A DNA stretch of 64,000 bases from a virus: the IMG/VR virus record IMGVR_UViG_3300029554_000001. One strand, given 5' to 3'. Positions 16,021-51,910 of this stretch are shown in pieces (position 1 is the first letter of the stretch; each line of letters opens with the position of its first letter). The translations under genes and the position numbers were made by a program. Below the pieces are notes generated by a model, which was given only the letters and a program-made list of their open reading frames with translations, was not told the DNA's origin and made no database searches.

Positions 16021-17061
16021 GAAATCCTTATGAAAACGCTGACGTTCATAGTGATATGTTCGAAAAAATACTCCTTTAACTGCTGGGAACTTCTAAGGCT
16101 TAATTAACTAAAGCGGAATATGAAAATATAAACGTAAAAGTTGCGAAAGCAGAAAAAATAATTAAGATGACTTATGGTTAAATCCTAAAAGTTGTAATAA
16201 TGAACAATCAGCAACCAAGCTCCTGTAAAATGGAGAAGGCTCAACGACTATCTCGAAAGAGAGTAGGGGAAACCCGAAATGGGGAGATTCTTTTAATAAG
16301 AATAAGATATAGTCTAATTAATTGAAAAGAAGTGATGTAAAATAGACGAAAAAGAATATACCGTATATTAGCATATAAACAAATTAAATCGGAAGCGATA
16401 CATTGGTATGACTAACTAGCCCGTAAATAAAAGATGGGGTAAAAATGGATAGCGGTATTTAAGATAGAACAAAAATGGGGAATACAATTAGCCAGCAATA
16501 GCAAGAGCTATTTTAAAATATGGCTGGGATAATTTTAGTCATGAAATTATAAGTTCTGGCTTAAGTGTGGAAGAAGCCTGTCAATTAGAATATGATTTGA
16601 TAGAAAAATATCACACAAGAGATTCTAACTATGGGTATAATTGTACTTATGGAGGTATATATCACACTAAAACAGAAGAGGAAAAAGAAAAAATAAGTAA
16701 AAGTAACAAAAAGTTCTATGAGAGTCATTAGCATCACATGAAAGGGACACATTTATCAGAAGAAACTAAAAAACGTCTAAGTGAAATATTTAAAGATAGA
16801 GTTTTTTCTGAAGAAACGAAACAAAAAATGTCCCAAAACCATTGCAATGTAAATGGAGCAAAGAATCCAAGAGCTAAAAAGGTTCGTTGTATTGAAACAG
16901 GAGAAATATTTGAAACAGCTAAAGAAGCTGGAGAGAAATATCATAATTGTCCCTCAAATCCTCGGTGTGGAATTAGAGATTGTTGTAGGGGAAGAAGAAA
17001 AACTTCTGGAGTAGATGAAAATGGAAATGGTTTACATTGGGAATGGGTCGATTAAAAACAG
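16021..17061 (+). mobile_element. group I intron A with a GIY-YIG ORF
   Basis: P1: exon TCAGT pairs with GCTGA (16038-16042) with a U-G pair. P2 hairpin has a GUGA tetraloop. Conserved core CTGCTGGGAA...GCGAAAGC...ATGGTTAAATCCTAA...AATCAGC...CTCAACGACTATC...GAGTAG...GATATAGTCT. A P10-like match supports the 3' splice site after G17061. Confidence 0.8.
16336..17055 (+). CDS. GIY-YIG homing endonuclease in intron A; no canonical start codon
   Basis: EYTVY-TAG-HINK..RYIGMTN...KRW...ILKYGW...YGYN. At least 6 in-frame TAGs. The frame opens directly after a TGA (16333-16335) with no in-frame ATG, GTG or TTG ahead of the GIY motif. Confidence 0.6.
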
Positions 17062-17418
17062 GTTTACGATGAGGCCGGAAAAATTGATAGGACATTCTTT
17101 GCCCTGTCTCGTCCTTTTACTGCACAGGATACAAACTTTATTACTGGTGATGGTATTAATACGGATATATATCCAAGACAGCTACCGAATAAAAAGTTAT
17201 TATTAAGTTCTGCTGAGGGTATTGACAGCGAACTTTTTGACCAATATAAAATGGCATTTGAAAAAATGTTATTAGGAGACCCAAATTATTTTGTATGTGA
17301 TATTAGTTGTGAGTTTTCATTACATCCTTTTATGAATGGTAAGCCTATGAAGCCACTGATTACATAGGATGAAGTTGATAACGCATTTGCTACTAATCCA
17401 TACAAAGCAGAACGTGAG
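17062..17418 (+). CDS. terminase large subunit, exon 2 (3' end approximate)
   Basis: Starts VYDEAGKIDRTFF (Walker B). The 5' splice site of intron B lies somewhere in 17415-17445. Confidence 0.65.
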
Positions 17419-18579
17419 CAAATCGAAAAGAAATACTCCGCACATTTAGTGATAAGTGTGTGCATCCCATTGAACTGCTGGGAGTTCTTAAAGGTTTTTG
17501 TACTACAGCATAATTATGAAATAAGAATAAGTGCGAATGTTACGAAAGTAAAAAGAAACAAAAACATGGTGCATGGTTAAATCCTAAACACTATATAATA
17601 GATAATCAGCAGCCAAGTCTTTAACAGAGAAAGGTTCAACGACTATCCCGTGACTGGGAGTAGGGGTTGTTAAAGAATAACAACTTCGAAGTGGTGGGAC
17701 ATCTTAATGAGATGATGATATAGTCTAAGCTTATATGAAAATATAAGAAGTAGGTTGTTTTTAAGGGCGACAAGGGAAGGCCATCCTTTATACATATCCG
17801 CAAAATATGTATATAGCCCTTTATATATTAAAAATACTTTTTGCGGGAGGTTTTTAATGAAAGATGATAGAAAATGGACAGTATATATTCATACTAATAA
17901 AGCAAATCAAAAGAAATATGTTGGAATAACTAGTACTTCTGTGATAGAAAGATGGCATCATGGACATGGCTATTTAACCAAAAAGAAAGATGGAAGTTTT
18001 TGTTAGCCAGCTATGGCTTATGCAGTATTAAAATATGGATGGGAAGGTTTTTCTCATGAAGTAATAGCTGAAAATTTGACTATGGAAGAGGCTTCTTAGA
18101 TGGAAAAAGAACTGATAGAAAAATATTAGTCTAATAACAAACATTTTGGATATAATATTAAAGAGGGTGGAATAGATGGATTGCCTTCTGAAGAATCAAT
18201 TCAAAAAGCTTTATAGACAAAACTTAAGAATGGATATCACCATAGTGAAGAAACTAAAAGGAAGATATCTGAAAGTAATATGGGTAAAACTCATACTGAT
18301 TCATCTAAAGAATTGTTAAGTAAAAGCCATAGTAAAACAAAACAGAGACCGAAGGAAGTAATTCCACGGAATGATACATATAATTAGGTTTATTGCCAAT
18401 GTGTAGAAACAGGAGAGTGTTTTCCCTCAATTTCTAACGCCGCTGTTAATACTGGCTCTTACAACCCAAATATAGTTAAATGTTTAAAAGGAACAAGAAA
18501 AAGAGCTGGCGGATATCATTGGAAAGAAATAACAAAAGAAGAATATGAAGAATACTGTGCCAACAACTGAAAATACTTG
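17419..18579 (+). mobile_element. group I intron B with a GIY-YIG ORF (junctions approximate)
   Basis: Same conserved core as intron A (17475-17730), including the GNRA-capped hairpin GCACATTT-AGTGAT-AAGTGTGTGC. I could not find a clean P1. Confidence 0.7.
17857..18570 (+). CDS. GIY-YIG homing endonuclease in intron B
   Basis: RBS GGGAGG. WTVYIHTN..KKYVGITS...ERW...VLKYGW...FGYN plus a C-terminal NUMOD-like region. Several in-frame TAGs; TGA stop. Confidence 0.8.
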
Positions 18580-19614
18580 TACAAGAATCGTTTTGACAGA
18601 GACGGCGGTGAAGATGTTTTTGTAAAACGTTCAACGATTTTACGAAATAGCTTTGCATACTATCCAGTATATGAAAATGACGGCGAGAAAAAATATATCG
18701 TCTGTTACGACCCTGCATCGAAATTAGATAATTCTATTGTTTTAATAGGAGAATTGTTCAGAGATAAAGAAAAGGGTTTAATGTTAAAAATAGTCAATTG
18801 TGAGAACTTGATTGAGCTTTTACCTAACGGTGATAAGGCAATAATTCAAAAGCCTCAGCAAATTGAAATGATAAAAGACCTTATTATAAATTATAATAGA
18901 GGTGCTTTAGATTATGATAATATTGAGCTTGTCTGTATTGATGCTGGTGCTGGCGGTGGAGGATTTGATATTTCTCAGTTCCTTTTAAATGATTGGGTAG
19001 GTTCTGATGGTAAACGTCATTTAGGTCTTATAGACGAAGAAGACCCATATATGAAATTACGCGCAGATGATTATCCTGCAAATATAAGAAAATTGCAGTT
19101 ATTCAATTTTAAACGTGATAAAGTTCAAGCTTATGAAAGAACTCAAGCTGCAATTAACCAAGGATTAGTAATGTTTCCAAAGAGTTTAAATGCTCGTAAC
19201 GAGATGGAAATTGAAGAAGTTGCTTCTGATGGAACAACTTCAATAAGATATGAAAAGGTTTCGTTTGATGAAATGAACTCTTTGATATAGATTGATTTAA
19301 CTAAAGAAGAGTTAGTTGGTATGCAAAAGCAAAAAAGACCAAACGGTACGATTGTTTTTGAACTTTCACCTGACGCCAAGCAAAAAAATATGCATGATGA
19401 CCGAGTTGACTGTGTAGCAATGATGTGTAATCATTTGATGGAATTGCGCGCTAAAGAAGTGTTGGAGTTGGAAGAAAAACCTAAGACGGAATTTAAAGAA
19501 ATGTTTGCAAAACAAAAGAGTGCAAACAAAAGTAATAGTTCTAATCCTTTCAACGGATTAGGACAGGTAAATCCACTTTCCACTAAATATAGGAGAGGTG
19601 GAAGGTTTGGTTGA
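18580..19614 (+). CDS. terminase large subunit, exon 3 (nuclease domain)
   Basis: YKNRFDRDGG...IVCYDPA...CIDAGAGGGG...HDDRVDC. Track ORFs 18577..19290 and 19321..19614 are joined by a TAG. Confidence 0.7.
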
Positions 19615-19653
19615 TATTAATGATTAATATAAGAAGAAAGGAGGAGTAGGATT

Positions 19654-20357: not shown

Positions 20358-20455
20358 GAAGTCTTTTTCAAATAAATAGTTGCAGAATATGCAACAAGTT
20401 AAAATTTTTTGCAAAACATTTTAATTAAGTGAATAAGGAGGTGTAAAGGAGAAGA

Positions 20456-21895
20456 ATGGCTGATATTAATAAGCTGCAAACGCTCATCCAATTGCGTCGT
20501 GGTTTTCAGGCGCAGTGGGATACAGTAGCTAATACTTACATTCCTAAAGCTGGTGAACCTTGTGTAACTCTTGATGGTAAGAACAAGGGTTAGATTAAGA
20601 TTGGTGATGGCACTTCCACATGGGGAGAACTCAAGTATGTTGGTGTCAATGAAGGTGCTATGCATTTTATTGGTACTGTTGCTACGAAGGCTGAACTTCC
20701 TGAAAGTGCCGAAACTGGTGACATTTATCAAGTAACTGAAGATAGCAAACTGTATATTTGGGATGGCGATAGCTGGGAGATTTTTCATGCTGTTGACCTG
20801 AGTAATTATTACACCAAAGAAGAGACTACTAATCTTGTAACTGTTGAGATTGGTAAGGTTAATGAAAAAGTAACTGCTAATACCAATAAACTTAACGAAG
20901 TAGAAACTAAAGTTAACGAAACTAATTCCAAACTTGAAAGTCTTGGAACAGAGCTTGCCAAGGATTATGCTCTGAAAGCTGACCTTGATGTTATTAAGGT
21001 TTATGGCGATACTACATCTGATACTTCCATGGAAGTTAATGGACAAAAGTATAATACTGCCAGTGAAGCTATTGCGGCTGTAAGCGCTGGTGGCACGATT
21101 AAATTGAGTGGTGGTCTTGGTGCAGATGAAGTTATTAATGCTGACAAGCAGTTTACTCTTGATATGAACAATGCGGTTATTGTTGATAATGAGAAGACTC
21201 CTGTTAATGTTAGTGTTAATGGTGCTTTGACTCTCACTGGTAATGGCAGTGTTGAATGTAATAAGAATGGTAAACCCGCTATTAACAATAATGGTAACTT
21301 GATTATTGAGAATGGCAGTTATACTCGTAGCGTTGATGAGAAGGGTAATTCTTATTATACCATGGTCAACCATGGTAATATTGTGATTAATGATGGTATT
21401 TTCCAAGCTCCTCGGATTGTTTCGAGTATGATTTCCAATGGTTATTGGGATTACACACAGGATTACAAAGCTGGCGAAATGGCAGAATATCCTGAATTGA
21501 CTATCAATGGTGGCACATTTATTAACGCTTTCTATGTTATTAAGAATGATGACAATGGTAAGCTTTATATTAATGGTGGTAACTTCTACGGTACTATTTT
21601 CAACAATGGTTACGAAATGGTTGTTAAAGGTGGTAATTTCAAAGTTACTGATGGGACTTACAATATTGGTATGCGCAAGTTAAATGATGTAATGAACTCT
21701 GGTAAGTTACTCATTGAAGGCGGTACATTCTACAGCAATGGCGAAGTTAACTTTAAGCACAACGGTGGTGGCGAAGAGCCTGAAGTTGTTATTAAAGGTG
21801 GTAAGTTTAGTGCTGTTGTACCTGAGAAATATATTGCAGCAGGCTATGAATAGAAGTACATAGATGGTTACTATGTTGTAAGTGCAAAAGCTTAA
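20456..21895 (+). CDS. tail fibre/spike with an Mtd_N/HylP-like N-terminus and beta-helix-like repeats
   Basis: N-terminus LQTLIQLRRGFQAQW...GEPCV...IKIGDGTSTWGELKY; repeated NGG.F / GNGS segments. Two in-frame TAGs (one extends the C-terminus). Confidence 0.65.
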
Positions 21896-22823: not shown

Positions 22824-22902
22824 TAAATAAACAATTAAGCAATTTAATTTGTTTTTAAATCTTTGATTATGAAATCTTTGATTATGAAAAGGAGATTTTA
22901 TT

Positions 22903-24582
22903 ATGGCTGATATTTCTAAAATTAAGCTTGCAAATGGCACTACTGTAACTATTAAGGATGCTCAGGGTCGTGCTGATATGACTACTATTCTTGGTGGTCA
23001 CGCTCTTGAAGCTCTTGGTGCTGCCGCATGGCAAGCTATGGCTGCTAGTATTTCTGATGCTGGTATTGCTGACGCTGCTACTGTTAAGGCTTATGTTGAT
23101 TCTCAGGTTGGTCAGATTCATAACTTTGATGTTGTAATTGACCCTACTGGTACTACCGCTGGTCCTTCTGTAGTTGCTTCTGCCGATACTATGTACAAAA
23201 TTTATCTTGTTCCTTCTGAGGATGCAGCAGCGGGTGGCTATATTGAATATATTACTATTCGTTCTGGCGCAGAGGGTGCTTATACTTACACTTGGGAAGC
23301 TATTGGTAATACAAAGGTAAGCCTTACTGGTTATGTTCCTACTACGACCACTATTGCTACCATTGCTCTCGACCACAATATTACTGTTGCTGAACTTCAG
23401 ACTGCTCTTAAGCTTGGTGCAATGGCCTATGCTGATAAGGCTTCTGGTTCTGGCACTCTTCAGACTATTGACAGTATCACCATGAAGGAAGTTACTGTTG
23501 CTGGTAACGCCGCTGTTACTTCTAAGGCTGCTGATGCTACTCTTACTAAGGCTAACTATACCCCTGCTGGTAAGGTTACTGGCTCGGCAATTTCTGATGG
23601 TTCTATTAATGTTACTTTGAAGGATTCTGCTACTAAGACCGAGGCAACTCTTAGCACCTCTGAGTTCACTCCTGCTGGTACTATCGCCGCTAAGGAGGGT
23701 GGTTCTTTCTCCGCCCTGAAGACTGCTGCTTTTGGTGCTGCTGAGGACGGTGTTCAGATTGAGGGTACTGTCAGTGCTCCTGCAATTTCTCTTACTGCTG
23801 CTGATAAGACTTTTGCTACTGGTTTGACTGGTGGTAAGGCTGCTTCCTTTACTGAGGGTGCTTTTACTCCTGCTGCAATTCAGGACGGTTTCTATACTGC
23901 TGGTAAGGCTGCTGCTTGGACTGGTGCTGATTATACTGCTCCTACCATGGGTGAGGCTTCTAAGGCAAAATTCGCTTCCGAGGGTATTGTTGTCGATGTT
24001 GGTTCTGGTGATGACGCTGAAACTTTGATTTTCTCTGCCGCTGGTACTGCTGATGCTGTTACCGCTCAGGGCGCCTTTAACGCTGGTAATGTCGATTTTG
24101 GTACTTTCAATGGCGGTTCTGCTACTGTTATTGATACTACTAAGTTCTCTGGTGGTTCTAAGGCTGCTGACACCTTCACTCCTAATGAACTTCAGTCCGT
24201 TACTACTGGCAAGGTAAGCGAAGTTTCTGCTGCTGAGCTTGCCAATGCTCCTGTATTCACTGGTAGCAAGTATGCTGTTGCTACTACGGCCGATACCGCT
24301 CTCAAGGATGTTGCCTTCACTGCTACTAATAGTGCTACTATTGTTGACAAGGTTGAGTATGTTAAGCCTGAGATTGATGCTGCTACCTTCACTGGTACTG
24401 CTGCTACTCTTGGCTTTGTTGGTACTGAGGTTGTTGATGCTCTTGTCACTGGTGTTAAGTACGATAAGGCTGATGCTACTGCTGCCTTTAGCGTTGCTGT
24501 CACTCCCGAGACTGACGTTATCACTAAGACTGCTAAGACTGTTGAGATTGAGGTCTCTCCTGTCGCTAAGGCTGGCGAGTAA
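22903..24582 (+). CDS. Ala/Thr/Gly-rich fibre protein with an N-terminal ISKIKL module
   Basis: 559 aa with no TAG. Repeated (F/Y)TPAG motifs and strongly biased composition, which creates spurious overlapping ORFs. Confidence 0.65.
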   Translation: MADISKIKLANGTTVTIKDAQGRADMTTILGGHALEALGAAAWQAMAASISDAGIADAATVKAYVDSQVGQIHNFDVVIDPTGTTAGPSVVASADTMYKIYLVPSEDAAAGGYIEYITIRSGAEGAYTYTWEAIGNTKVSLTGYVPTTTTIATIALDHNITVAELQTALKLGAMAYADKASGSGTLQTIDSITMKEVTVAGNAAVTSKAADATLTKANYTPAGKVTGSAISDGSINVTLKDSATKTEATLSTSEFTPAGTIAAKEGGSFSALKTAAFGAAEDGVQIEGTVSAPAISLTAADKTFATGLTGGKAASFTEGAFTPAAIQDGFYTAGKAAAWTGADYTAPTMGEASKAKFASEGIVVDVGSGDDAETLIFSAAGTADAVTAQGAFNAGNVDFGTFNGGSATVIDTTKFSGGSKAADTFTPNELQSVTTGKVSEVSAAELANAPVFTGSKYAVATTADTALKDVAFTATNSATIVDKVEYVKPEIDAATFTGTAATLGFVGTEVVDALVTGVKYDKADATAAFSVAVTPETDVITKTAKTVEIEVSPVAKAGE

Positions 24583-24738: not shown

Positions 24739-24742
24739 TACA

Positions 24743-34596: not shown

Positions 34597-34612
34597 TGCA
34601 GTTTAATTTTAT

Positions 34613-35466: not shown

Positions 35467-35490
35467 GTTAATATTAATTTTAATATTAAC
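35467..35490. repeat. 24-bp palindrome G-TTAATATTAA-TT-TTAATATTAA-C
   Basis: 11-bp perfect arms around a central TT, in the divergent region upstream of the recombinase gene. A further half-site ATTAATATT follows. Confidence 0.5.
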
Positions 35491-35540
35491 ATGATTAATA
35501 TTCATTATAGAGGACATATTTTAATATAAGGAGTATAACT

Positions 35541-35996: not shown

Positions 35997-37146
35997 ATCG
36001 CCTAAAGCTGTTGTAAATGAAGAAGCTAAAATGATTACTATGACTTAGGATAAACCTGAAGAAGATGTTTCATTGAAGGCTATTCAGCAAAGATGGGCTA
36101 CTATTTTTGGTAAATACGCTTCTACTGGTTTTGACAACTTGGCTGGCGCTTGGGCTATGTCTTGGAGTCAATTAAATAATCCGTTTTTGCAGAATCAACG
36201 TATTAAACAAGTTAACGCTAAGGCTCAAAAAGTTCAATCAGAAGACCTTCAAAATGCTTTAAACAATCCAGAAAACTCTGAAATGACTTTTTAGAGAATC
36301 AGTATGTGGCTGTATTATACTAATTATGTTTACAATATTTTAGTAAAACTTAATAGAGATACTCCCTTATTTAATTATTATTATATCCCAGAGTATGTTG
36401 ACTCGAAAGATATGTCTACCGAAGCTTTTAAAAAAGAAAGTCAAAAAGTCGATAAGATTTTAAAAGCTTTTAAACCAAATTTAACTTTAAAAACTATTAC
36501 TACTCAGGTGAGTTTGGAAGGTAAATCTTCTTATTTACCTCGTACAAGCTATGATAAGAATGATGTTAATTTTTTTGTCATGCAGAAACTTAATACTGAT
36601 ATGGTTAAATTGATTGGTTTTGGTAGTAAACAGTAGTTTACTATTGCTTTTAATATGGCAATTTTCCTTCAACCAGCTTATGATGTTAGTCAGTATCCTC
36701 AATTTATTCAGGATGTCTGGAATCAAATGCTGGAAACAGGAATTGTTGTTATAGATTAGAAAACTAAGAAAAAGAGAATTTCTCCTAAAGCGAAACTTCC
36801 CGATGGTCACATCTTGGAAAGCAATGGAGAAAATTATATGTATTGGGTAAGATTGCCTCAAGATTTGTGTTATACATTCTATTTTGATGGCTCTCATCCT
36901 AATGCATTCCCTGATACAATTGGCTTGTTTGATGATTTGACAGACTTGGATGACTATAAATGGTTGCAAGCAAATTTATTAAGTAAAGGTGTTAATAGTG
37001 TTTTAACTGCTGAGGTTCCTATTACGAAGGATGCCAAGGCCCGGTCCGACTCTACTGTTATTACTCCTGATACAATTCTTGGTTATCAGGATTTCTTTGC
37101 GGAGAATATTTCAGGTAATATATTGCCTTTCTTCGCACCATTTAGT
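35956..37146 (+). CDS. portal protein, exon 1
   Basis: TTG start after GGGAGG. Track ORFs 36073, 36304 and 36814 share one frame, joined by four TAGs. Portal assignment rests on size and position. Confidence 0.6.
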
Positions 37147-38465: not shown

Positions 38466-39176
38466 ACACAGGAATTCGAATTACACACCTTAGAAAATCA
38501 GCCCGAAGCAATGGATATCATTTATGATAGAACTAGAGATTTAATCGCTACTTCTGGTAATTCTGCTCTTATGAGTATTACTGATAAACCTTCTATCGCT
38601 TCTGTTAAGGCTGCTCAATATATTTAGGCTGCTAGAATTGATTACCTTACCAGACAGTACGAAAGTTTCTTAAATGAAATGATTAATAAGAATTTTGATT
38701 TGAAATTCCAATGGAAAATTTCTCTTTGGGGTGATATCTTTAATATTCGCGAGGATATCAAAATTCTTAGAGAATAGGTTGTGTCTGGTTTAGAAGGTTT
38801 TATTCCTAAACTTCTGTCGGCTAATGGTATGACTGTTGATGATTATCAACAAGCTAAAGCTTACCTTAAAGCTTTAGATATTAAAGTTGAAAAAGTCTTA
38901 GACCAAGAAAATTTAATCGCTAACCCTGTTGGTAGACCAAAGTTGAACGATGATGAGATTACCAACGATAACACTGGTAACTCTTCCAATGCTGGAACTA
39001 ATGTTTCAGACATTAAGGAGTTTTCATATAATATCAAAAAGTGCCAAATTTGCGGAAAAGAACTGAATGAAGATGAAGATGTAATTTGTAACGAATGCTT
39101 GGAAGAAATGTATGAGTCTCGTATTAATGATATGAGTACTTTTACTCACATGATTCCAAAGAAAGTAAAGGATTGA
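38466..39176 (+). CDS. portal protein, exon 2
   Basis: Open frame upstream of track ORF 38781..39176, joined by two TAGs. A C-terminal CxxC...CxxC is present. Confidence 0.55.
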
Positions 39177-40273: not shown

Positions 40274-40612
40274 ATGGGCTATGTTTATTTTATAACAAAT
40301 GGGGAAAATATTAAAATAGGATATACTAAAAATTCAGTTCAGAAAAGACTAAAACAATTAAATACTGGCAGTGATAAGCAATTATATATCTTAGGATATA
40401 TGAAAGGCACTATGGCTGATGAGGAAAACCTTCATTCTAAATTTTAGCAATATAAAATTAGAAATAATGGAGAATGGTTTGAGCCATCAGATGATATATT
40501 GGACTATATTAATATAGTTAACCTTGTTCCTAATTGCTACGTTCGGAAGAACGAGGCTTGGAATAACAAAGTAATGGCTATGACTTCTGTGCCATTGTCA
40601 TTTACATCATAA
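40274..40612 (+). CDS. T5orf172/MUG113 (GIY-YIG-like) domain protein
   Basis: GYVYFITNGENIKIGYTKNSVQKRLKQLNTG....LGY...E..LH.KF-TAG-...GEWFE. One in-frame TAG. Confidence 0.6.
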
Positions 40613-40634
40613 GGAGAAAGGAGGAAGAAAAATA

Positions 40635-42548
40635 TTGGATAAAAAAGTTCTGAAATTTGAACTTTCTCCGCAAAGTTTGAAAATTAAGAATGTGTTAAAA
40701 AATGACTTTATTGCTATCGACGTTTACGCGATTTCTGATGTCTACCCTAATAGAAATAATAGCTATTTCCCTGTGTCTGCTATGCAAGACGCTAAACCTA
40801 CCTTTTATAATAAACCCGCTCTTGGTGCTTTTGATACTACTCATGATGACTTTAAAGCTCATGAAATGGAATATAGATGGGATAATGAGTTACAACAAGA
40901 TTACTTTGACTTTACTAATGGTAAATGTGAAGTCCCACTTGGCGTAATTCGTGGCGAAGATTTGGTTGAAATTGTCGAACATGACGGTCAAACTTGGGTA
41001 CATTTTACTTGCGTTCTTTGGGCTAAATATGCTTATAAACAAGTTAAAAGATTGCTTAAGGATACTAAAAAGAAAATTTCTGTAGAAATAGAAGTCCTTG
41101 AAAGTCATATAGATGAAAATAAAGTCGAAGTAATAGATAGATTCATTTTTGATGGATTTACTATTCTTGGTTCTGCTGTTACTGAAGCTATCCCTAATGC
41201 ACATTTAACCATTCTTGATAAAATTAATGACGCTGTTTATCAGAAACAGGAAAAATGCTTATCTTTCGCTTATAAAGAGTTGGAAGATAATAACAATAAA
41301 GATAAAAATTCTGGCTCTGATACAGATAATAAAAATGAGGATTTCGATTCCATTATTCCTGATAACGGAATTGTTAATGAAAAAGTGGACGAAATCACGA
41401 TGGATAATGAACAAAGAGGGGAGGAACCAAAAACAATGACCTATGAAGAGAAAAGACAACTTCTCGAATCTTTTCTGAATAGCGGTCTTGATGAGAATGC
41501 TTCTCATTACAGTGTCACGGAAATTAACGACAATGTTGTTTGCTTTAGCCTTGATGATGAAAATTTTAAAGCTACTTATAGCATCAACGAAGAAAATGTC
41601 GCTAATGTTGATATGGACGCTAAAGAAAAGATTGTACTCTCTAAGGATGAAAATCCTGAAGATGAGAGTGGTAAAGAGACTGAATCCAAGGAATGTGAAT
41701 CTGAAGACGGCAAGTGCGAAGTCTGCGGTAACAACCCTTGCACTTGTGCGCATGAAGATGACGATGGTAATAAGGATGACGGTCATAAAGAGAATGAGTC
41801 TGAAGATGACAAAAATGATGATGACCACGACCATGATGATGATAATGATGATAACGACGATGATGATGGCAAAAAGGAAACCGAGGCTGAGGATAACGAT
41901 GGTGAAAAGAAAATCGAAAATTGCGAAGACCCCGCTCAGTTTGCCGCTACTGATGTAACTGTCGATGAATCTCATGCTGACCATGGACAGATTGAAGGTG
42001 AAGAGCTTGGTTCTCCTAAAGTTGATACTGATATCCTCAAAGAACATGATGATGGCAGTATTTTAGTCGGCCAACCTTCTGGTGAAAGTAATGTTATTCA
42101 GGATACCCACTATGCTGTCGGTGATGAACAACTTACTGCTGATGAACTTTATGAGAGATTCAATACTCTTAATACCTCTTTCGCTGAACTGACTGAAAAG
42201 TATAACGCTCTTAATGCTCAGTTTAACGCAAAGAAAAATGCCGAACTTTATGCTTTGGCTTGTTCTTTGGTTGATTCTGAAGAAGATTTGACTGAGGAAA
42301 ATGCTACTAATATTAAGGCATTTATGAAAGAAAATTGTGATAACAGTACTTATGCTTCCGATGAGGAACTTAATGAGGCTGTTGACCATAAAATTGCAGA
42401 TGCTCTTTATGCTCAGAAGAAACTTAGTAGAAAAGCTAAGGAGAAAGAGTTTTCTGCTGATATCGTTAAGGATAAACCTGTTGTTACTGAAGTGAACGAC
42501 AGCGCAAATAACCTTAAAAATGCAATGAAAAATCTTAATAAGATTTAA
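40635..42548 (+). CDS. scaffold-like protein with an N-terminal globular (possibly protease) domain and an extremely acidic linker
   Basis: 637 aa, located just upstream of the decoration-like and capsid genes. D/E/N/H-rich tract (DDDHDHDDDNDDNDDDDG) and a C-terminal coiled coil. Confidence 0.5.
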   Translation: MDKKVLKFELSPQSLKIKNVLKNDFIAIDVYAISDVYPNRNNSYFPVSAMQDAKPTFYNKPALGAFDTTHDDFKAHEMEYRWDNELQQDYFDFTNGKCEVPLGVIRGEDLVEIVEHDGQTWVHFTCVLWAKYAYKQVKRLLKDTKKKISVEIEVLESHIDENKVEVIDRFIFDGFTILGSAVTEAIPNAHLTILDKINDAVYQKQEKCLSFAYKELEDNNNKDKNSGSDTDNKNEDFDSIIPDNGIVNEKVDEITMDNEQRGEEPKTMTYEEKRQLLESFLNSGLDENASHYSVTEINDNVVCFSLDDENFKATYSINEENVANVDMDAKEKIVLSKDENPEDESGKETESKECESEDGKCEVCGNNPCTCAHEDDDGNKDDGHKENESEDDKNDDDHDHDDDNDDNDDDDGKKETEAEDNDGEKKIENCEDPAQFAATDVTVDESHADHGQIEGEELGSPKVDTDILKEHDDGSILVGQPSGESNVIQDTHYAVGDEQLTADELYERFNTLNTSFAELTEKYNALNAQFNAKKNAELYALACSLVDSEEDLTEENATNIKAFMKENCDNSTYASDEELNEAVDHKIADALYAQKKLSRKAKEKEFSADIVKDKPVVTEVNDSANNLKNAMKNLNKI

Positions 42549-43208: not shown

Positions 43209-43704
43209 ATGAAACAAATTTTTAGTTATAACAAATTCAACGAAGATGTCGCTGATGGTCTCGTTGAAACTTGCTATTCTTTGGCTCAGAAGTCCATTGA
43301 GGGTAAGAACAACACCCCTGAGTATATTGAAGCTAATAAGACCTTTAACCAAGAGTTTATGAAGTATTGTGTTGAGAACGCTGGCATGAAGTGGAGCGGT
43401 CTCGATATGATTAAGAATCCTATGGTCTACAAGAAGAGTAACTTCCTTGAGACTTTTGATACCATTCTTGCTGGTGCTATCACTCCTGTTGTTCCTACTG
43501 TTGCTGCGTCTGGTTATGAACAGCTTTATGATGTCACTCAGGTTGGTTTCGGTGATGTTGCTAAGTATGAAGTCGATAGCAATGAGCTCTTCATTGTGAA
43601 TAGCCTTGCTGAAGGCATTGCTCGTGGTGGTGTTCAGACTGCTTCTAACACTGAGTATACTATTTCTGCTAAGAGAGAGCAGATTTCTCTCTATGTTGAC
43701 TGGT
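43209..43704 (+). CDS. major capsid protein, exon 1
   Basis: Strong RBS AAGGAGG, biased codon usage, position after the scaffold gene. Ends ...ISLYVDW plus the first nt of a Tyr codon. Confidence 0.65.
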
Positions 43705-45151
43705 TAAATATAAGTACGTTATAAATAGCTAGGGCGTATAGTAATATGCGTAAAAATATTTCCATTTAATTGCTGGAATACCGTAAAGACAATCAAACTA
43801 CAACGCAAAATTGAAATAGATTTAATCGTGATAGTTGCGAAAGCAGAAAAAATTGATTGTATGATATAAGGTTAAACCCTAAGTATCTTAAAAATTGGTA
43901 ATCAGCAGCCAAGCTTCGAAAAGAAGAAGGTTCAACGACTATCCTCGTAAGAGGAGTAGGAATATAGTCAATAAATTATTCCGAAATGGTGGACATCCTA
44001 TAGGGATGAAGATATAGTCTAAGCTTGTGTGAAAATACAAGAATCCGAAAGGGTTAGAGCGAATTGACGATTCGAAAAATTTAGTGTTTAAATAAAATAA
44101 AAAGGAGGTTTGTATGTTAAAAGAAAATCAATTGATTGAAATTCCTTGGACACAAACCGCTTAGAAATATTTCAATGAAAAAGGTTATAGTCTTTTTAAA
44201 GGGAAGACTATTCATGTTAAACCAGAAGAATTACCAGAAGGAAGCCATAGAGAAGTTGTGGCTGTTTGTGATTTTTGTGGAAAAGAAATAACGGTTCAAT
44301 ACAAAAAATATTTAAAAAGAATAGAAAAGCATGATGGTAAATATTGTTGTAGAGATTGTTGGGGAAAGAATAAAGAGCTAATAGCTCAAAGAAATAATAA
44401 GTCTATAAAAACAAATTTAGAAAAATATGGAGTAGATAATCCTGCTAAAAGTGAAGAAATTAAGGATAAATCTAAAAAGACTTTAAATGAAAAATATGGG
44501 GTGGATAATCCTCGGTAGATTAAGGAAGGTCAAGAAAAAGCAAAACAGACTTGTTTGAAAAAATATGGAGTTGAATATCCAATTTTAACAAAAGAAGCAA
44601 AAGAAAAAGCTGTTAAAACTTGTTTGGAAAAATATGGAGATGTAAATCCTTTTTCGAATAAAGAAGTAAGAGCTAAAGCTATCAACACTTGCAGGGAAAA
44701 ATACGGTTGTGATTATCCCGTACAAAATCCAGAAGTGCGAAAAAGAATGCAAGAAGCATTAGCTAATAAAAAAGAATTAATTCCATGTTCTTCACAACAG
44801 TTAAAAATTTATGAAATGCTTTTAGATGAATATAAAGTAGAGTTGAACTACCCTTTAAGTCAACTCAATTTAGATGTAGCTATTTTTATTGGAGATATTA
44901 AAATAGATTTGGAATATGATGGTTGGTATTGGCATCAAGACCAGTAGAAAGATATAAAAAGAGATAGAGTAGTTCAAAAAATGGGTTACAAAGTCTTAAG
45001 AATAAAAGGAGACCATTCTATTCCAGAAAAACAAGAAATAATTGACAAGATAAATTGGCTATTAAAAGATAATAATTATTATGCTGAAATAATTTTAAAA
45101 GATTATGAATAGCAAAAAGCTAAAAACACTAAATAACTCTTAATATAACTG
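43705..45151 (+). mobile_element. group I intron D with a Vsr/EDxHD-like endonuclease ORF
   Basis: P1: exon CTGGT pairs with GCTAG (43728-43732) with a U-G pair. P2 has a GUAA tetraloop and the core is conserved. Splicing after G45151 gives ...VDW-Y-HVASGRQDWG... in frame. Confidence 0.8.
44114..45136 (+). CDS. intron-encoded homing endonuclease, Vsr-like/EDxHD family (paralogue of 37593..38462)
   Basis: RBS AAAGGAGG. Five KYG(V/C)(D/E)(N/Y)P repeats, then LDVAIF..IDLEYDGWYWHQDQ-TAG-KDIKRDRVVQKMGYKVLRI. Four in-frame TAGs. Confidence 0.6.
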
Positions 45152-45768
45152 ACCACGTGGCATCGGGTCGCCAAGATTGGGGTAAGCTTCTCCAGAAGAT
45201 TGGTGCTTCTTTTGCCGCTTATATTCAGGCTCGTCTTGCTAAGGTAATGGCTTCTATTATTACCAATAACACTGACGTTGCCACTAACAATCAAGATGGT
45301 ATCGCTGGCTATATGGCTAACGGTCTTACTGATGAAAACTGGCTCAAAGTTGCACGTTTGGTAAAACTTGCTAATGGCGGTGCTGATGTTTATGCTCTTG
45401 GTACTTCTATTGCTCTCGCTTCTGTCCTTCCTGACAGTGCAAAGGGTTTCCGTTATGGTGAGGATAGCGCTATTGTTAGAGATGGCTTCCTGCCTGATTA
45501 CAAGAATGTTCCTATGATTGAACTGGGTAACGCTCTTGTTCCTAACACCATCAATGGTGAGCCTGAAGTCGTTCTTCCTGATGATATTATTTACATGCTT
45601 CCTCTTGGTATGAATAAGCCTATCAAGGTTGTCATGGAAGGTAATACCGTTTCTGTTGAGAAGGACCCCTTGTTTGCTGCTGACCATACTTACGGTTTCA
45701 CCGTTGACATGCGTATGGGTATGGACGCTATTGTAGGTAGCAAGATTGGTGCTATTACTCTTAACTAA
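45152..45768 (+). CDS. major capsid protein, exon 2
   Basis: Continues track ORF 45157..45768; no TAG codons. Confidence 0.65.
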
Positions 45769-45876
45769 TATCAAATTATAATCTAATTATAAGTAATTAA
45801 TTATAATAATTAGTTAATTTCGTAAATTCTGGTTGCTCCAGATATGTTTAAAAGGTTTAAAAGGAGATTGTAAAAA

Positions 45877-46725
45877 ATGGCTGTAAATAAGAAAACTATT
45901 AAAAATACAGAAGAAGTTGTAAACGAAACTAATAAGGAACAAATTGCTGAGAATGCGGAGACTTCTGTTAAGGAGTCTCCTGCTACTCAGTCTTCTATCT
46001 CGTTAGAAGATATTCAAGCTATGATGGCAAAGTTCCAGTCTACGATTGAATCTTTGAGTAGTGAACTCAAGGAAGAGAAAGCAAAGAACGAAAAGTTGGC
46101 AGAAGCAATCAAAGAATCTACTTTGAATGATAGAGAGGGCGATACAGAAAGTTCTTTTAAGGCAAAAGAAGTACAGGATAATACTTCTAATACAACAGAA
46201 AGACTTTTGGAAATTCTTGGCAATAGAAAGAGTGACAAGGAAATTGTTATTGTTCATAATCGTGAGTTGCTTGGTGGTCTTTCAACCGCTATTCAGCTTA
46301 CTGGTTTGACTATTAATTTCCATACTCTCGGAGAACAGCGTGTTCTTAGTTGGCAACAGTTTGAGGAATGTGTTTCCAAATATCGTAAGTGGTTCGATAA
46401 AGAAATTATTCTTTTGGCTCCCGAATTCGCTGATGTTGCGGAACGCTATAATGTTTCCTGTTTAAAGAGAGAGGGTCATGCTGTTGTTACGAAGGGAGAC
46501 CTCGTAAATATTTACAAGAAGAGTGAGCGTGAACTTGAGGATTACATGAATTCTTTGACTGAAGCTGATAAAGACTTTATTTGTTCTTATTGGCTTGGAA
46601 AGTGCTATGAAAATGATGCTAAATATCGTGTTAGAAGTAAAGTTGAGCTTCTGAACAGAATTTCTAACAAGGGTGTTTTTGACAATCTGTTGGCTCAAAT
46701 GAATTTTGATTCAATAAGACATTAA
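45877..46725 (+). CDS. hypothetical head-associated protein
   Basis: 282-aa ORF with the RBS AAAGGAG. Confidence 0.6.
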   Translation: MAVNKKTIKNTEEVVNETNKEQIAENAETSVKESPATQSSISLEDIQAMMAKFQSTIESLSSELKEEKAKNEKLAEAIKESTLNDREGDTESSFKAKEVQDNTSNTTERLLEILGNRKSDKEIVIVHNRELLGGLSTAIQLTGLTINFHTLGEQRVLSWQQFEECVSKYRKWFDKEIILLAPEFADVAERYNVSCLKREGHAVVTKGDLVNIYKKSERELEDYMNSLTEADKDFICSYWLGKCYENDAKYRVRSKVELLNRISNKGVFDNLLAQMNFDSIRH

Positions 46726-46744
46726 ACAAATAAGGAGGGTTTAA

Positions 46745-47452
46745 ATGGGCATTTTGTTTAGTGATGTCTATCGAAAAGCAATAGCCTTATTTGATGACCC
46801 AAGGATTACGACAGCGTATGAGACTAATCCTTTGCAATTTAATAAGATAATGTACACCTATTTGCAAAATGCAATATCTATGTTTAACAACCCTCTAAGC
46901 GTTTCTTTACGTTTATCTCAATATAAAGAACCAAAAGGTATCATGCAAGTTTTTGAAGGGGATGGTAAGAATAATAAATTCGAACTTGACCCTGAGTTTG
47001 AGATTCAGGATAATTCAGTATATAATTATATTGAGGGAGAATTATTGGTGCAAGGCTCGATTGATAAAGAAGCTCACACTGTAGAATTCCCTGATGTGTT
47101 ACCTGAAGGCAAGCAATATGCAGTTGAGCAATATTATGTTGGTGAATTTACTGACAATTTTGAAGGCTTAACTAATAAAAATGTAAATGGTACAAGTTTA
47201 GTGGTAGGTTATGTTAAAGATATTCTTGCTCGTTTGCTTGTAAAAGCATGGGGAGAAGAAGAGCGCAATTTGTTATTAGATATTCGCAATTTAATGCAAG
47301 ACAGCGATTTCAAGATTATGTCTAATGACCGTATCTTAAAAGCAAAAAACGAATGGGTAGACCAACTTGATTCAGAAATATACAATTATCAAAATAGACT
47401 TGCGTGGCAAATCCGTTTTATGGGTGGTAGTAAGTTTATAGGAAGGGGGTAA
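46745..47452 (+). CDS. hypothetical head-tail joining region protein
   Basis: 235-aa ORF with the RBS AAGGAGGG. Confidence 0.6.
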   Translation: MGILFSDVYRKAIALFDDPRITTAYETNPLQFNKIMYTYLQNAISMFNNPLSVSLRLSQYKEPKGIMQVFEGDGKNNKFELDPEFEIQDNSVYNYIEGELLVQGSIDKEAHTVEFPDVLPEGKQYAVEQYYVGEFTDNFEGLTNKNVNGTSLVVGYVKDILARLLVKAWGEEERNLLLDIRNLMQDSDFKIMSNDRILKAKNEWVDQLDSEIYNYQNRLAWQIRFMGGSKFIGRG

Positions 47453-47454
47453 AG

Positions 47455-47790
47455 ATGGATAAAGACGAAAAGAACTTCAAAGTAGTTTTATCTATTAATG
47501 AGAAAATTATATGCTTAGAAGAAATAGTTTCAAAATTGAAGAAAGTTCTTTATGTATATGACAAATCTCAAGAACCCGATTCCACTTATAATTACCGTGT
47601 GTATTGTGGTGGAATAATGATGTATGTTTCGTCAAGTAATATTCTTTTTGATGGTGAATTAGTAAGTATTATAATTAATATCAATGCTATTTTAACGAAT
47701 CAATTAGATAAAGGACAGATTAAGAAGTTAATATTTGAATCAATCAATTATGCAGAGTATTTATTAAAGAAATACAAAAACGAAGGTTAA
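47455..47790 (+). CDS. hypothetical protein
   Basis: 111-aa ORF tightly coupled to the upstream gene. Confidence 0.55.
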   Translation: MDKDEKNFKVVLSINEKIICLEEIVSKLKKVLYVYDKSQEPDSTYNYRVYCGGIMMYVSSSNILFDGELVSIIININAILTNQLDKGQIKKLIFESINYAEYLLKKYKNEG

Positions 47791-49687: not shown

Positions 49688-50695
49688 TTGGCAATATCTA
49701 AAGAGTTACAAGCTAAAATGGAAATGTACGAACAAGCCTATTTCGGTCTGGATTTACCAGTGCCATTTAAAGGCTTGTTAATTTATCCAGTTTTAACGAA
49801 AGATTACTATAATTTTTATGCTAATTTATCTTGTTTTACTCAAGATAAAAATATTAAAGAAATAAAAGTTGTAGATGAAAATGGAATAGAAACTACTAAA
49901 AAAGTGGCTAATCCTGAAGGTATTGGTATGTCTTATATGGCATATTTAATATAGAATATGGAAAACCAAGAATATGGACCTATGGTTACTTCTTAGGTAA
50001 TTAATATGTTCGAACTTGTGCTCCATGAAAAAAATGGTTTGTTTTGTCCTCATTGTGGATTCAAACGAACTTAGTTTGAAGTTATCAAAGAATATGCTAA
50101 ATTCCAAGAAACATTACCTGATAATTTAAGCGAAACTGAAAAGAAAGTTAAAGCTCTTGAGTTTATTAATAATTATGCTATATGTCCAGAATGTAAAAAC
50201 AAAATGAGAGATATCTATGGAATTCAAACGGGTGCTAATGGCGTGAAAAAATTATATATATACGATATAGTTTTAGAACCAAAAGAACTTGATGAATTTA
50301 TAGCTATTATTACACACCAAAATATTTTGGATTACGATGGAGATAGGTATATCGACCCCAATTTAAGAGAAGAAATGGAATTAAAGGCGAGGATGCAGAA
50401 CAAGAATTACACATCTCCAAGTTTGGAAAAATAGCTTGTCTGTATATCCATTAGTTCTCCATACACTATGGAGATGTTAAAAGAACAAGTAAGTTTGAGA
50501 AAACTTTCTTTAATGCTAAAAACCATTGATGCTAAGGGGTATTATTACGCTTAGATTTAGGGTGCTATGTCTCGGATGGTTTAGTTTAAGGATGGAGACA
50601 TTCACCATTGGATATTTACTGATAACAAGAAGGATATGTCTAAGGAAATTATGACAATGAATGATTTCCAAAAGAAGTTTGCTTCTGTTACATAA
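49688..50695 (+). CDS. hypothetical protein with a CxxC...CxxC zinc ribbon
   Basis: TTG start. Track ORFs 49688 and 50204 share one frame, joined by about 7 TAGs. The TAA overlaps the next ATG. Confidence 0.5.
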
Positions 50696-51501
50696 TGGAG
50701 AGAAAAGTGGAAAAATTTACGACTGAAGAAAAACAAAATATTATAAAAGAATATGAGTCTGGATTGTCTTCTGGATAGCTGGCAGAAAAATATCGGTGTA
50801 ATAAATCGACAATTTGCGACATTCTTAAAAAGAATGGAGTTAAAGCAAGAGATGGACATTTTAAGAGATAGTATTCTTTTAATGAACATTATTTTGACAA
50901 AATTGATTCAGAAGATAAAGCTTATTTTTTGGGTTTGTTATTTGCTGATGGATGTAATTTAAAAGAAAGAAATGTAGTTTGTATTGAGTTGGTAAAAACT
51001 GATTCTGCTATATTAGAAAAATTTGCTGAAGTAACTGAAAATAATAGACCATTGTATGATTATAATCACAAAAATGGTTAGACTTCTACAAAATTAAGTT
51101 TTACTAGTAAATATTTTTGTGAAATTCTTGATAAACTTGGATGTGTACCAAGGAAGTCTTTGGTATTGCAATTTCCAGATTATTTAGACAAATCTCTTTT
51201 AAGACATTTTCTTAGAGGATATTTTGATGGAGATGGAAGTATTACTTTATATAGAGGTAAAAGTACGATTAATCGGCAAGCTTCTGTAGTAAGTAGTAAA
51301 GATTTTATAGAATCTCTTAAAGAAAAAATAAACCAAATTAACCCGAACATACATTACATTACTAGGTCAACTGGTAATGGAAGTAGTTTGGTTTTATGTA
51401 GGAAAGATTCTATTAAAGAATTTTTATCTTATATTTATGAAGACTGTTCTATATATTTAGAAAGAAAATTTCTAAGATATCAAGAACTAATAAATAAATA
51501 A
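50695..51501 (+). CDS. free-standing LAGLIDADG homing endonuclease with an N-terminal HTH
   Basis: LGLLFADGCN and LRGYFDGDGSI motifs; three in-frame TAGs. TAATG overlap with the upstream gene. Ends 15 nt before the tail tube start codon. Confidence 0.75.
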
Positions 51502-51515
51502 GGAGGATATATATT

Positions 51516-51522
51516 ATGTTAT
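51516..51522 (+). CDS. major tail tube protein, exon 1 (7 nt: ATGTTAT)
   Basis: RBS AAGGAGG then ATG. P1: GTTAT (51518-51522) pairs with GTAAC (51556-51560), which abuts P2 exactly as in introns A, C and D. Confidence 0.5.
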
Positions 51523-51910
51523 CGGATGCCGAGTCCGCATTTGCTTGGCTAAAGAGTAACCGTATACAGTGATGTGTATGTAAAAATAGTCTTTGAATTG
51601 CTGGAATTCCCTAAAGCTGTTTATGCTACAACAAAAGGATGAAATATGCCTAATTGTGAATGCTACGAAAGTAAAAAGAAATAAACAGATGATATATGGT
51701 TAAATCCTAAGTGTTGAATAATGGGTAATCAGCCGCTAAGTCTTGAATAAAGAAAAGTTCAACGACCATTTCGAAAGGAAGTATACCACAAGTGATTGGT
51801 GGTAGAAGTGGAGACTGCCTTTTAATAAAAGGTAATGATATGGTCTAATCTTATATGAAAATATAAGGCGAAAGCAAAATAAGAGTAGCGTCTTATTTTA
51901 AATTAAAATG
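51523..51910 (+). mobile_element. group I intron E, without an ORF
   Basis: Same core as introns A-D (TTGCTGGAATT...GCTACGAAAGT...ATGGTTAAATCCTAA...AATCAGCCGCTAAG...GTTCAACGACCATT...GATATGGTCT). P10: TTGGCTAAAG pairs with the exon 2 start TTTTAGCTGG. The omega G is at 51910. Confidence 0.75.

Follow-up and report, generated by a model that had tools for sequence, protein, structure and literature searches.

The 64,000-nucleotide (nt) stretch of viral DNA analysed here, record IMGVR_UViG_3300029554_000001 of IMG/VR (the whole stretch is called the window below), is part of a ~215-kb phage genome that reads TAG as a sense codon. On its + strand lie the genes for a YonO/RdRP-like RNA polymerase (RNAP), the terminase (terL), the portal, the major capsid protein (MCP) and the tail tube, and all of them are interrupted by insertions (Table 1). 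We conclude that the window holds six mobile group I introns in these packaging, portal, capsid, tail-tube and RNA-polymerase genes, a reading to which we assign a probability of roughly 0.93. A preliminary description, made from the letters alone, had placed five group I introns, two of them in terL and one each in the portal, capsid and tail tube genes, between positions 16021 and 51910, where I1 begins and I5 ends. Rfam matches, covariation and intron-less alleles support all five; a sixth intron at 7736–8928 (I6) had been missed. Our reading draws on a covarying fold, exact boundaries, restored conserved proteins, endonuclease domains and presence/absence polymorphism, all of them computed here, and from these we infer self-splicing activity.

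A family of homologous ribozymes

The motifs ATGGTTAAATCCTAA and GTTCAACGACTATC each occur in five + strand copies, at ~16.2, 17.6, 37.3, 43.9 and 51.7 kb. Aligned with MAFFT, the five regions are collinear over ~330 columns, and their mean column identity is 68–74%. The collinear core strings listed in the preliminary description were right, apart from small variations among I1, I2, I4 and I5: CTGCTGG in I1 and I2, ACGAAAGT in I2 and I5, and AAGGTTAAACCCTAA in I4. P7 of I5 reads GACCA...TGGTC, which is a compensatory change. In a scan of the window, an nhmmer profile built from the five copies recovered each of them at E-values of 1e-72 to 2e-84 (I1, 1.2e-72; I2, 2.4e-84; I3, 6.5e-81; I5, 5e-82). 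Elsewhere in the window the profile found a single partial sixth copy, at 8809–8920 (E = 1.8e-10), and otherwise nothing comparable.

We also searched with the Rfam group I model RF00028 (gathering score 50 bits), as had been proposed. All five introns match this model, two of them at the gathering score (Table 1). A scan of 38 kb (E up to 1) caught two of the five, and the scores of I1, I2 and I3 come from searches of short stretches. We place I1–I3 in the family because all five copies are mutually homologous (E < 1e-70) and I4 and I5 score above the gathering threshold.

Intron-less alleles define the insertion sites

The loci of relatives (L numbers) were fetched in three ways. A protein search with the provisional spliced terminase gave many homologues, and the contigs of two of them (L002 and L005) were retrieved; an IMG/VR scan with the spliced capsid protein gave 16 loci, on contigs of up to 220 kb; and a second IMG/VR scan, with its anchor in the region from the polymerase gene to terL, gave 10 further loci. 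Boundaries were mapped by blastn of the window against the fetched loci, after which the junctions were inspected. We observed the following. All six sites have uninterrupted alleles in relatives that are 93–99% identical at the DNA level, and the junctions are exact to the base. At the I6 site, the loci L022, L023, L025–L027 and L031 run from 7735 straight to 8929, so that ...CGAGACAGAT is followed by AGATAAAAC. Both terL sites are empty in L002, a 214-kb contig with a terL ~82% identical in DNA, where ...TTTTCA continues into GTTTACGATGA at the I1 site. L005, with a terL ~95% identical, has a short intron devoid of an open reading frame (ORF) at site 1 and an empty site 2; L005 and L026 join 17418 to 18580. 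Seven relatives join 37146 to 38472 at the I3 site. Two of the 16 loci from the capsid scan (L006 and L007) encode an uninterrupted capsid protein across the I4 site at 99% identity. At the I5 site, L006, L008 and L018 read AAGGAGG...ATGTTAT followed without interruption by TTTTAGCTGG, the intron-less start of the tube gene being AAGGAGGATATATATTATGTTATTTTTAGCTGG. This allele bears out the proposal that exon 1 of the tube gene is just seven bases long.

The same junctions are supported at the protein level. Intron-less terL homologues of 630–640 amino acids (aa) align directly across both terL junctions, and the intact spliced MCP peptide YVDWYHVA is present in IMG/VR contigs. I4 splits the codon of an invariant Tyr in the motif VDW-YHV; across 46 homologues, W165 and Y166 do not vary. 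Five of the six insertion sites fall in conserved motifs, including Walker B and the positions between R-E and Y, between VDW and Y, and between QSRQ and ID. The insertions in the MCP, tube and RNAP genes are not in phase 0.

With the mapped junctions, and with TAG taken as sense, every host gene becomes one open frame. All the introns end in G, as expected from the earlier proposal that splicing after a G restores each frame. At the DNA and protein levels, the products expected after splicing line up collinearly with uninterrupted homologues. The comparison with intron-less homologues, which the preliminary description had suggested, thus fixes the insertion sites to the base. The relatives are uninterrupted at these sites; homologues carrying the inserts as coding sequence, which would have spoken against introns, are the opposite of what we saw.

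Table 1. Introns, endonuclease ORFs and interrupted genes of the window. P1 is given as exon/guide; scores in bits are for RF00028.
Feature	Position	Strand	Size	Location or content	P1	Evidence and remarks
I6	7736–8928	+	1193 nt	YonO/RdRP-like RNA polymerase gene	CAGAT/GTCTG	nhmmer; RF00028 in two pieces (7854–7934, 19.9 bits; 8762–8920, 28.4 bits, E 5.7e-5); intron-less alleles
I1	16021–17061	+	1041 nt	terL, phase 0, between ...SNFS and VYDEAG (Walker B region)	TCAGT/GCTGA	ribozyme 16021–~16340; 26.4 bits, E 3.8e-4
I2	17419–18579	+	1161 nt	terL, phase 0, between ...AERE and YKNRF		ribozyme 17419–~17760; 37.3 bits, E 2.1e-7
I3	37147–38471	+	1325 nt	portal, phase 0, between ...APFS and EFELH	TTAGT/GCTAA	ribozyme 37147–~37490; 44.9 bits, E 2.6e-10
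I4	43705–45151	+	1447 nt	capsid (MCP), phase 1	CTGGT/GCTAG	ribozyme 43705–~44045; 65.2 bits, E 1.7e-14, above gathering score
I5	51523–51910	+	388 nt	tail tube, 7 nt into coding sequence; ORF-less	GTTAT/GTAAC	58.4 bits, E 1.8e-12 to 3.1e-12, above gathering score
I6 ORF	7934–8803	+	289 aa	LAGLIDADG-type by motif only; 0 TAG		preceded by AAAGGAGG
I1 ORF	16336–17055	+	239 codons	GIY-YIG + NUMOD3; 6 TAG		Pfam GIY-YIG E 9e-5, NUMOD3 2e-4
I2 ORF	17857–18570	+	237 aa	GIY-YIG + NUMOD3 + I-HmuI-NUMOD-like; 5 TAG		Pfam GIY-YIG E 2.7e-8, NUMOD3 1.7e-6, I-HmuI_NUMOD-like 1.3e-5
I3 ORF	37593–38462	+	289 aa	DUF7487 repeats + DUF559/MTES_1575 (Vsr-like); 2 TAG		Pfam DUF7487 E 3e-20, MTES_1575 1.4e-11, DUF559 2.5e-5
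I4 ORF	44114–45136	+	340 aa	DUF7487 repeats + DUF559/MTES_1575 (Vsr-like); 4 TAG		Pfam DUF7487 E 1.3e-30, DUF559 6e-7
Free-standing endonuclease gene	50695–51501	+	268 aa	LAGLIDADG_3 + helix-turn-helix; 3 TAG		Pfam LAGLIDADG_3 E 1.5e-11
RNA polymerase gene	5727–9835; exons ~5850–7735, 8929–9835	+	~930–970 aa	host of I6		
terL	15487–19614; exons 15487–16020, 17062–17418, 18580–19614	+	641 aa	host of I1 and I2; 6 in-frame TAG		phrog_2
Portal gene	~36031–37146, 38472–39176	+		host of I3; start codon uncertain		phrog_2739, E 2e-37
Major capsid gene	43209–43704, 45152–45768	+	370 aa	host of I4; no TAG		phrog_4088 (unnamed PHROG)
Tail tube gene	51516–52938; exon 1 (ATGTTAT) 51516–51522, exon 2 51911–52938	+	344 aa	host of I5; no TAG		phrog_2729; PDB 8k98, 9jgh

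A covarying fold and its P1 pairings

RNAalifold analysis of the five copies gave the helices P2, P3, P4, P5 with extensions, P6, P7.1, P8 and P9, with compensatory changes in 41 of 73 pairs. We then assembled a set of 25 copies from the window and its relatives, in which P2, P7 and P9 were added by hand; the helices of this set are P2, P3, P4, P5 with extensions, P6, P7, P7.1, P7.2, P8 and P9. Here 94% of the cells are paired, against 36–44% when the partners are slid by 1–3 columns. Both sides changed together in 42 of 63 pairs, and the observed covariation score was reached by none of 500 shuffles. In the P7 pseudoknot, a U-A pair is replaced by C-G in seven copies, I5 among them (GACCA/UGGUC). 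These compensatory changes keep the pairing and therefore point to selection on the fold. Two of the covarying hairpins, P7.1 and P7.2, fall after P7 and before the 3' strand of P3, where the Rfam alignment has an insertion after GACUA. The introns belong to subgroup IA, an assignment made from the helix pattern and not with a subgroup-specific model, and taken no further than IA.

The P2 hairpins of all five introns reported earlier are capped by GUGA or GUAA, as had been described, but the quoted stems of I1 and I3 contain two U-U mismatches. P2 of I6 is also GUAA-capped. The guide sequence lies directly 5' of this hairpin. In five of the six introns (I1, I3, I4, I5 and I6) it forms a P1 of 5–7 base pairs (bp) with U-G at the cleavage site, the exon ends having been defined independently, and RNAfold of the exon plus the start of the intron recovered both P1 and P2 in each of these. 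The four guide pairings proposed earlier (those of I1, I3, I4 and I5) coincide with the 5' junctions of the intron-less alleles. By our own estimate, a 5-bp guide match would arise by chance in ~0.007 cases per intron. All six introns, I6 included, have a terminal G at the 3' boundary given by the alleles. P10 is clear in I1 (GUUU/AAAC) and in I5 (UUUUAG/CUAAAGA, six pairs).

The hairpin that opens the Rfam alignment of I5 and I2 was considered as a candidate for P1 and rejected; it is P2. With this hairpin as P1, no 3' site preceded by G restores the frame. The corresponding hairpins of I1 and I3 contain no U-G, and the intron-less alleles put the junctions upstream of it.

Endonuclease genes in and beside the introns

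Four of the five introns reported earlier carry endonuclease genes, and a LAGLIDADG gene lies just upstream of I5, which the preliminary description had overlooked. The ORFs of I1–I4 are placed between P9 and the last 6–15 nt of the intron, and that of I6 sits within the ribozyme, past the P4–P6 region. The I1 and I2 ORFs encode putative GIY-YIG homing endonucleases of the I-TevI-like kind. The GIY-YIG score of the I1 ORF is barely past the Pfam cut-off, and this enzyme may be decaying or inactive.

The I3 and I4 ORFs share the motif EYDGxxWH, and their DUF559 and MTES_1575 domains are families of Vsr-like fold. A phmmer search of the PDB sequences with the I4 endonuclease found no related, I-Bth0305I-like chain; for this reason we call the two ORFs DUF559/Vsr-like and not EDxHD. 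The I6 ORF was assigned by its LAGLIDADG-like motifs, YILGFLASDG and LFDGDG, and by a C-terminus similar to that of the ORF at 50695–51501. The latter gene is free-standing and stops 21 nt before the I5 insertion site. The activities and targets of all these enzymes are predicted from their sequences. Since five of the six intron-encoded or intron-adjacent endonuclease ORFs hold 2–6 in-frame TAG codons (the I6 ORF has none), these five endonucleases would be made only where TAG is read through.

Gain, loss and movement of introns among relatives

Each of the six introns is missing in at least one relative whose flanking sequences are 93–97% identical, and is present in other close relatives. 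Among the five window ribozymes, pairwise identity is 61–71%; for copies of the same site in other genomes it is 84–100%, even where the flanks are only ~70–75% identical. As same-site copies are far closer than the paralogues of the window, the paralogues are old, site-specific lineages. The five introns had been called closely related; they are homologous, but each site has its own older lineage. Similarly, the active intron spread proposed earlier is evident as presence/absence polymorphism, but not as recent duplication within the genome. The current activity is gain, loss and re-arming of introns among relatives that are ~95% identical.

The ribozyme profile found 31 copies in 27 fetched loci, and the occupancy of the sites varies widely. 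One and the same site may hold an ORF-less or an ORF-containing intron, as seen in L005 and L030 compared with the window; the I2 of L030 is an ORF-less version and marks the boundaries of the endonuclease cassette. In relatives, site 1 of terL also carries a different intron bearing a GIY-YIG gene. A third terL site (window 18957/18958) is occupied in L023, L029 and L030. Three further MCP sites are occupied in relatives, L014 (~43552) and L012 (~45622) being among the occupied loci, and L008–L011 share an insertion of ~870 nt just past the capsid gene (45778/45844). In L005 (4126–5273), L031 (11849–12996) and L029, at the equivalent of window 15692/15705 in all three, the Walker A region of terL is interrupted by an in-frame insertion of ~1.1 kb with a LAGLIDADG_3 domain; this insertion, which the window does not have, is presumably an intein. 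Many distant terL homologues of ~1000 aa carry Hom_end and LAGLIDADG_3.

At the tube gene, loci L006–L018 show all four combinations of the upstream LAGLIDADG gene and the intron. The window-type LAGLIDADG gene is accompanied by the intron in four of four genomes, and one genome has the intron alone. A divergent allele of the gene (66–71% nt identity, 347 aa) occurs without the intron in five of five genomes. The tie between the LAGLIDADG enzyme at 50695–51501 and the I5 site is one of association (4/4 versus 0/5).

One relative, L013 (IMGVR_UViG_3300013426_000077, 8561–10153), has a ribozyme 95% identical to that of I4 at a second capsid site (window 45342/45343; site sequence GATGAGAACTGGTTAAAAGTTGC), ~190 nt downstream of the home site, which is empty. 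The ectopic site follows AACTGGT and the home site GACTGGT, so that the two have the guide-complementary hexamer ACTGGT in common. The flanking Leu codon, divided after its first base, is TTA in L013 and CTC or CTT in close relatives; the TTA codon supplies the U for the U-G pair as well as a 2-bp P10. The endonuclease ORF of the ectopic intron belongs to the same family as the I4 ORF and has diverged from it. These features fit reverse splicing directed by the guide. We consider this copy a candidate for transposition to an ectopic site, whether through reverse splicing or through an endonuclease of relaxed specificity. Because the home and ectopic sites share ~15 of 23 flanking bases by our count, endonuclease cleavage at the ectopic site could account for it. 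That the intron family also reaches new sites by RNA-guided reverse-splicing integration, beyond endonuclease homing, is possible, if doubtful. An IMG/VR scan for further ectopic copies with the 15-mer of the I4 5' junction gave 117 hits, mostly due to chance, and only the L013 copy. According to a review from 2014, the reverse-splicing pathway was without direct experimental support, the best circumstantial evidence coming from introns of ribosomal DNA (PMC3984707). If true, the L013 copy would be circumstantial evidence of transposition of a group I intron by reverse splicing inside a protein-coding phage gene.

Two other differences between the window and its relatives were observed. A segment of ~940 nt (34556–35494) containing a serine recombinase gene on the - strand (34613–35320; Pfam Resolvase, E = 3e-35) is missing in L015. 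At 20864–20922 the window has ~60 bases that are surplus to all the fetched relatives, apparently in frame, in a tail-fibre-like gene (20447–21895) whose homologues match Mtd_N.

Host genes and genetic code

The earlier assignments of the terL, portal, capsid and tube genes hold. The phrog_2 match of terL runs in one stretch through both junctions, and the phrog_2739 match of the portal likewise passes through its junction. The capsid gene product is predicted to be an HK97-fold capsid protein: an AlphaFold model (pLDDT 78) of P0121, an uninterrupted homologue with 95% identity, gave a Foldseek probability of 1.00 to dozens of HK97-fold capsids. The tube protein matches the tail tube chains 8k98 and 9jgh of the PDB at E-values of ~8e-6 (7.9e-6 for 8k98). 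The protein interrupted by I6 has a DYDYD motif, and its homologues carry the Pfam domain PF05183 (RdRP), to which YonO-type polymerases belong; this suggests a YonO-like single-subunit RNA polymerase. The gene of a YonG_N-domain protein (13844–15487) adjoins terL. SPbeta-like phages likewise have both the YonO-like polymerase and the YonG_N protein. Searches of Pfam and NCBIfam gave no match for the terL, MCP, tube protein and RNAP of the window, and tblastn of terL against GenBank phages gave none.

The use of TAG as a sense codon had been overlooked in the preliminary description, and amends a reading that is otherwise supported. Summed over the six frames, ORFs with 100 or more codons add up to 59 kb with the standard code and to 79 kb if TAG counts as sense. 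The coding regions of the + strand are interrupted by TAG and not by TAA or TGA. Four of the six in-frame TAG codons of terL align with conserved Gln residues of homologues; TAG probably means Gln, and it was taken as Gln in all our translations. Each GIY-YIG endonuclease ORF, like the terL and portal genes, contains 5–7 TAG codons. The capsid and tube genes are free of TAG, as are 40584–42548, 22888–24582 and 45874–47790.

A non-coding stretch of ~500 nt (55325–55790) was also noted. It contains a match to the drum RNA RF02958 at 55350–55446 (43.6 bits, gathering score 43) and has a folding z-score of -2.4. The stretch is flanked by a gene for a beta-CASP/metallo-beta-lactamase nuclease (53834–55282) and by a free-standing GIY-YIG gene (55801–57069, 7 TAG). 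In L016 it is 98% identical, against ~94% for the adjoining genes.

Proposed mechanism and alternative explanations

We propose that each intron would be transcribed inside its host gene and fold into a P1–P9 ribozyme, which would release itself through the usual two transesterification steps, started by guanosine. Pairing of the last exon bases with the guide 5' of P2 would pick the 5' splice site, and the terminal G the 3' site, with the clear P10 of I1 and I5 aiding. Splicing would yield continuous terL, portal, capsid, tail-tube and RNA-polymerase frames. At the DNA level the introns would spread by homing, using the endonuclease genes that they carry: during co-infection, the endonucleases would cut intron-less alleles, and repair would copy the intron in.

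Several points weigh against this proposal. Splicing is a prediction from the comparison of DNA and protein sequences. Three of the five introns reported earlier, and both halves of I6, fall under the Rfam gathering score. I3, I4 and I6 have a weak P10 or none. The 5' site of I2 is preceded by G, with a P1 of just 3 bp (GAG/CUC), a combination for which textbook rules predict poor splicing. In the I1 ORF, neither ATG, GTG nor TTG precedes the GIY motif (16336–16410). A search of the window for tRNA genes found none, hence no suppressor tRNA for TAG here.

I2 is the sole intron for which the preliminary description gave no guide, and it truly has no canonical U-G at its 5' site. It might be spliced at another junction, to give a variant terminase, or its weak P1 might be helped by a protein cofactor or a trans-acting factor. 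The G at the end of the exon and the short P1 would fit such an explanation, and inspection of the first 70 nt found no alternative P1 with U-G near the junction. However, the alleles of L005 and L026 place the insertion exactly between an invariant Glu codon (GAG) and a Tyr codon (TAC). Another junction would add residues to a conserved motif or remove them: in 10 aligned terL sequences, Arg296, Glu297 and the Tyr of alignment position 314 do not vary. The layout of P1, loop and P2 is that of I1, and the terminal G is canonical. We therefore consider it unlikely that I2 uses another junction or depends on outside help.

Because the invariant Glu codon precedes it, I2 must splice after G; its P10 is UA/UA. 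The junction has an ambiguity of one nt, in that the preceding base could be A, and the intron would then end in U. The I2 copies of L027, L030 and L031 are identical in the P1 region, so P1 covariation could not be tested for I2. By its title, a study by Hur and Waring from 1995, listed among the references of PMC6468297, reportedly deals with natural group I introns that have C-G replacing U-G at the 5' site.

The low Rfam scores, the I2 site and the missing start codon of the I1 ORF would also be expected if the introns were dead relics and their hosts pseudogenes of a defective or mis-assembled phage. We hold this to be very improbable, since the five interrupted essential genes keep open, conserved exons, the compensatory changes indicate selection on the fold, and the same intron arrangement recurs in independent long contigs (I3–I5 in L016; I1 and I2 in L027).

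Public gene callers list the pieces of these genes as separate proteins (for example, P0010 and P0155), as if the genes were split into separately translated parts and the repeat were intergenic, serving as a regulatory RNA or a recombination site. A first tube exon of just 7 nt and an MCP junction within a codon do not fit such an arrangement. The downstream exons have neither start codons nor ribosome-binding sites at their 5' ends, close relatives encode single ORFs, and the repeat matches a ribozyme family with a covarying fold, all of which make it extremely improbable.

The chance that the insertions are removed from the protein, as inteins are, is negligible: although the terL family has real inteins (the Hom_end and LAGLIDADG_3 homologues and the Walker A insertion of L005), every window insertion has a TAA or TGA in the host frame a few codons past the junction, the endonuclease ORFs have frames and ribosome-binding sites of their own, and three of the insertions lie outside phase 0.

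Discussion

Phage introns of subgroup IA with homing endonucleases are known from the td, nrdB and nrdD genes of T4, the gene for DNA polymerase in Bacillus phage SPO1, and orf142 (three introns) and nrdE of Staphylococcus phage Twort. The introns described here have the same P1–P9 architecture, in which P7.1 and P7.2 separate P7 from the 3' strand of P3; they likewise interrupt conserved motifs of essential genes, carry GIY-YIG or other endonuclease ORFs in peripheral loops and may occur several per gene. Unlike the T4, SPO1 and Twort introns, they reside in genes for structure and packaging, in an uncultured phage that is recoded at TAG; their endonuclease ORFs contain TAG codons, one intron lies 7 nt past a start codon and one is without U-G. 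It is long established that essential phage genes can hold group I introns, several in one gene, together with endonucleases of the GIY-YIG, LAGLIDADG and other families (PMC3984707).

Dense introns in recoded gut phages have also been described. In the Delta and Zeta crAss-like phages the number of introns per genome reaches 14, and MCP genes can be interrupted several times (Yutin et al. 2021; PMC7886860). These phages, too, are of gut type and uncultured, have reassigned stop codons and carry group I introns at high density in core genes (MCP, polymerase). However, crAss-like phages are another lineage, the phage described here having a YonO/RdRP-like RNA polymerase and a YonG_N protein beside terL, and they carry inteins in TerL, whereas the TerL of the window carries introns and an intein is present only in relatives.

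Jug (jumbo gut) phages have a mean of 18.5 introns per genome, and some of the splicing has been seen in metatranscriptomes (bioRxiv 2025; PMC12363816). As here, their terL is found in 2–3 fragments through group I introns, and they have many stand-alone and intron-associated endonucleases of the HNH, GIY-YIG, PDDEXK and LAGLIDADG types. Their introns average ~206 nt, in contrast to ribozymes of ~320–390 nt in the window, mostly with endonuclease genes of ~0.7–1.1 kb. The density of introns in recoded gut phages is thus already published, and is extended here to a lineage with a YonO-like RNA polymerase.

In the 'Agate' phages, the reassigned stop codon is over-represented in the endonuclease gene of a group I intron (Borges et al. 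preprint; 10.1101/2021.08.26.457843). The enrichment was proposed to delay the endonuclease until the code switch, and terminase genes broken up by mobile introns were noted as well (10.1101/2021.08.26.457843). The Agate phages read TGA as Trp, whereas TAG is the reassigned codon here.

Collaborative (trans) homing of an ORF-less intron by a free-standing endonuclease is known from cyanophage psbA and F-CphI and from a T7-like phage (PMC3984707). The arrangement of the ORF-less I5, 21 nt from a free-standing LAGLIDADG gene, resembles these cases, the likeness here consisting of adjacency and co-occurrence.

Among GenBank phages, megablast of 20 kb gave only short matches to intron cores, of 79–82% identity over 90–140 nt in the P3–P5 core of I3. 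One lies inside the split DNA polymerase III alpha gene of the Lactococcus phage AM1 group (Audreyjarvisvirus; L032 2483–2857, KY554768), and another in the split major tail protein gene of Staphylococcus phage vB-SscS-F1 (Sextaecvirus; L033 ~2416–2918, 3147–4348, MW589261). What they have in common with the window is confined to the ribozyme core; neither the host genes nor the phages are related to those of the window. The gaps in these two split genes are likely to be unannotated group I introns.

The six introns of the window, unusually dense for a well-known kind of element, leave the understanding of group I introns unchanged. Of specialist interest are the sixth intron, the start-proximal I5, the non-U-G site of I2 that is forced by a Glu codon, the code-dependent endonucleases and the candidate ectopic jump. 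For annotation, six essential genes of the window would be fragmented or missed unless TAG read-through and intron removal are both applied, and the exact junctions permit reconstruction of the host proteins. With endonuclease genes written in the altered code, their expression would be tied to the code switch. The phage population itself offers a compact natural record of intron dynamics, in which sites are occupied, empty, ORF-less or differently armed among genomes that are ~95% identical.

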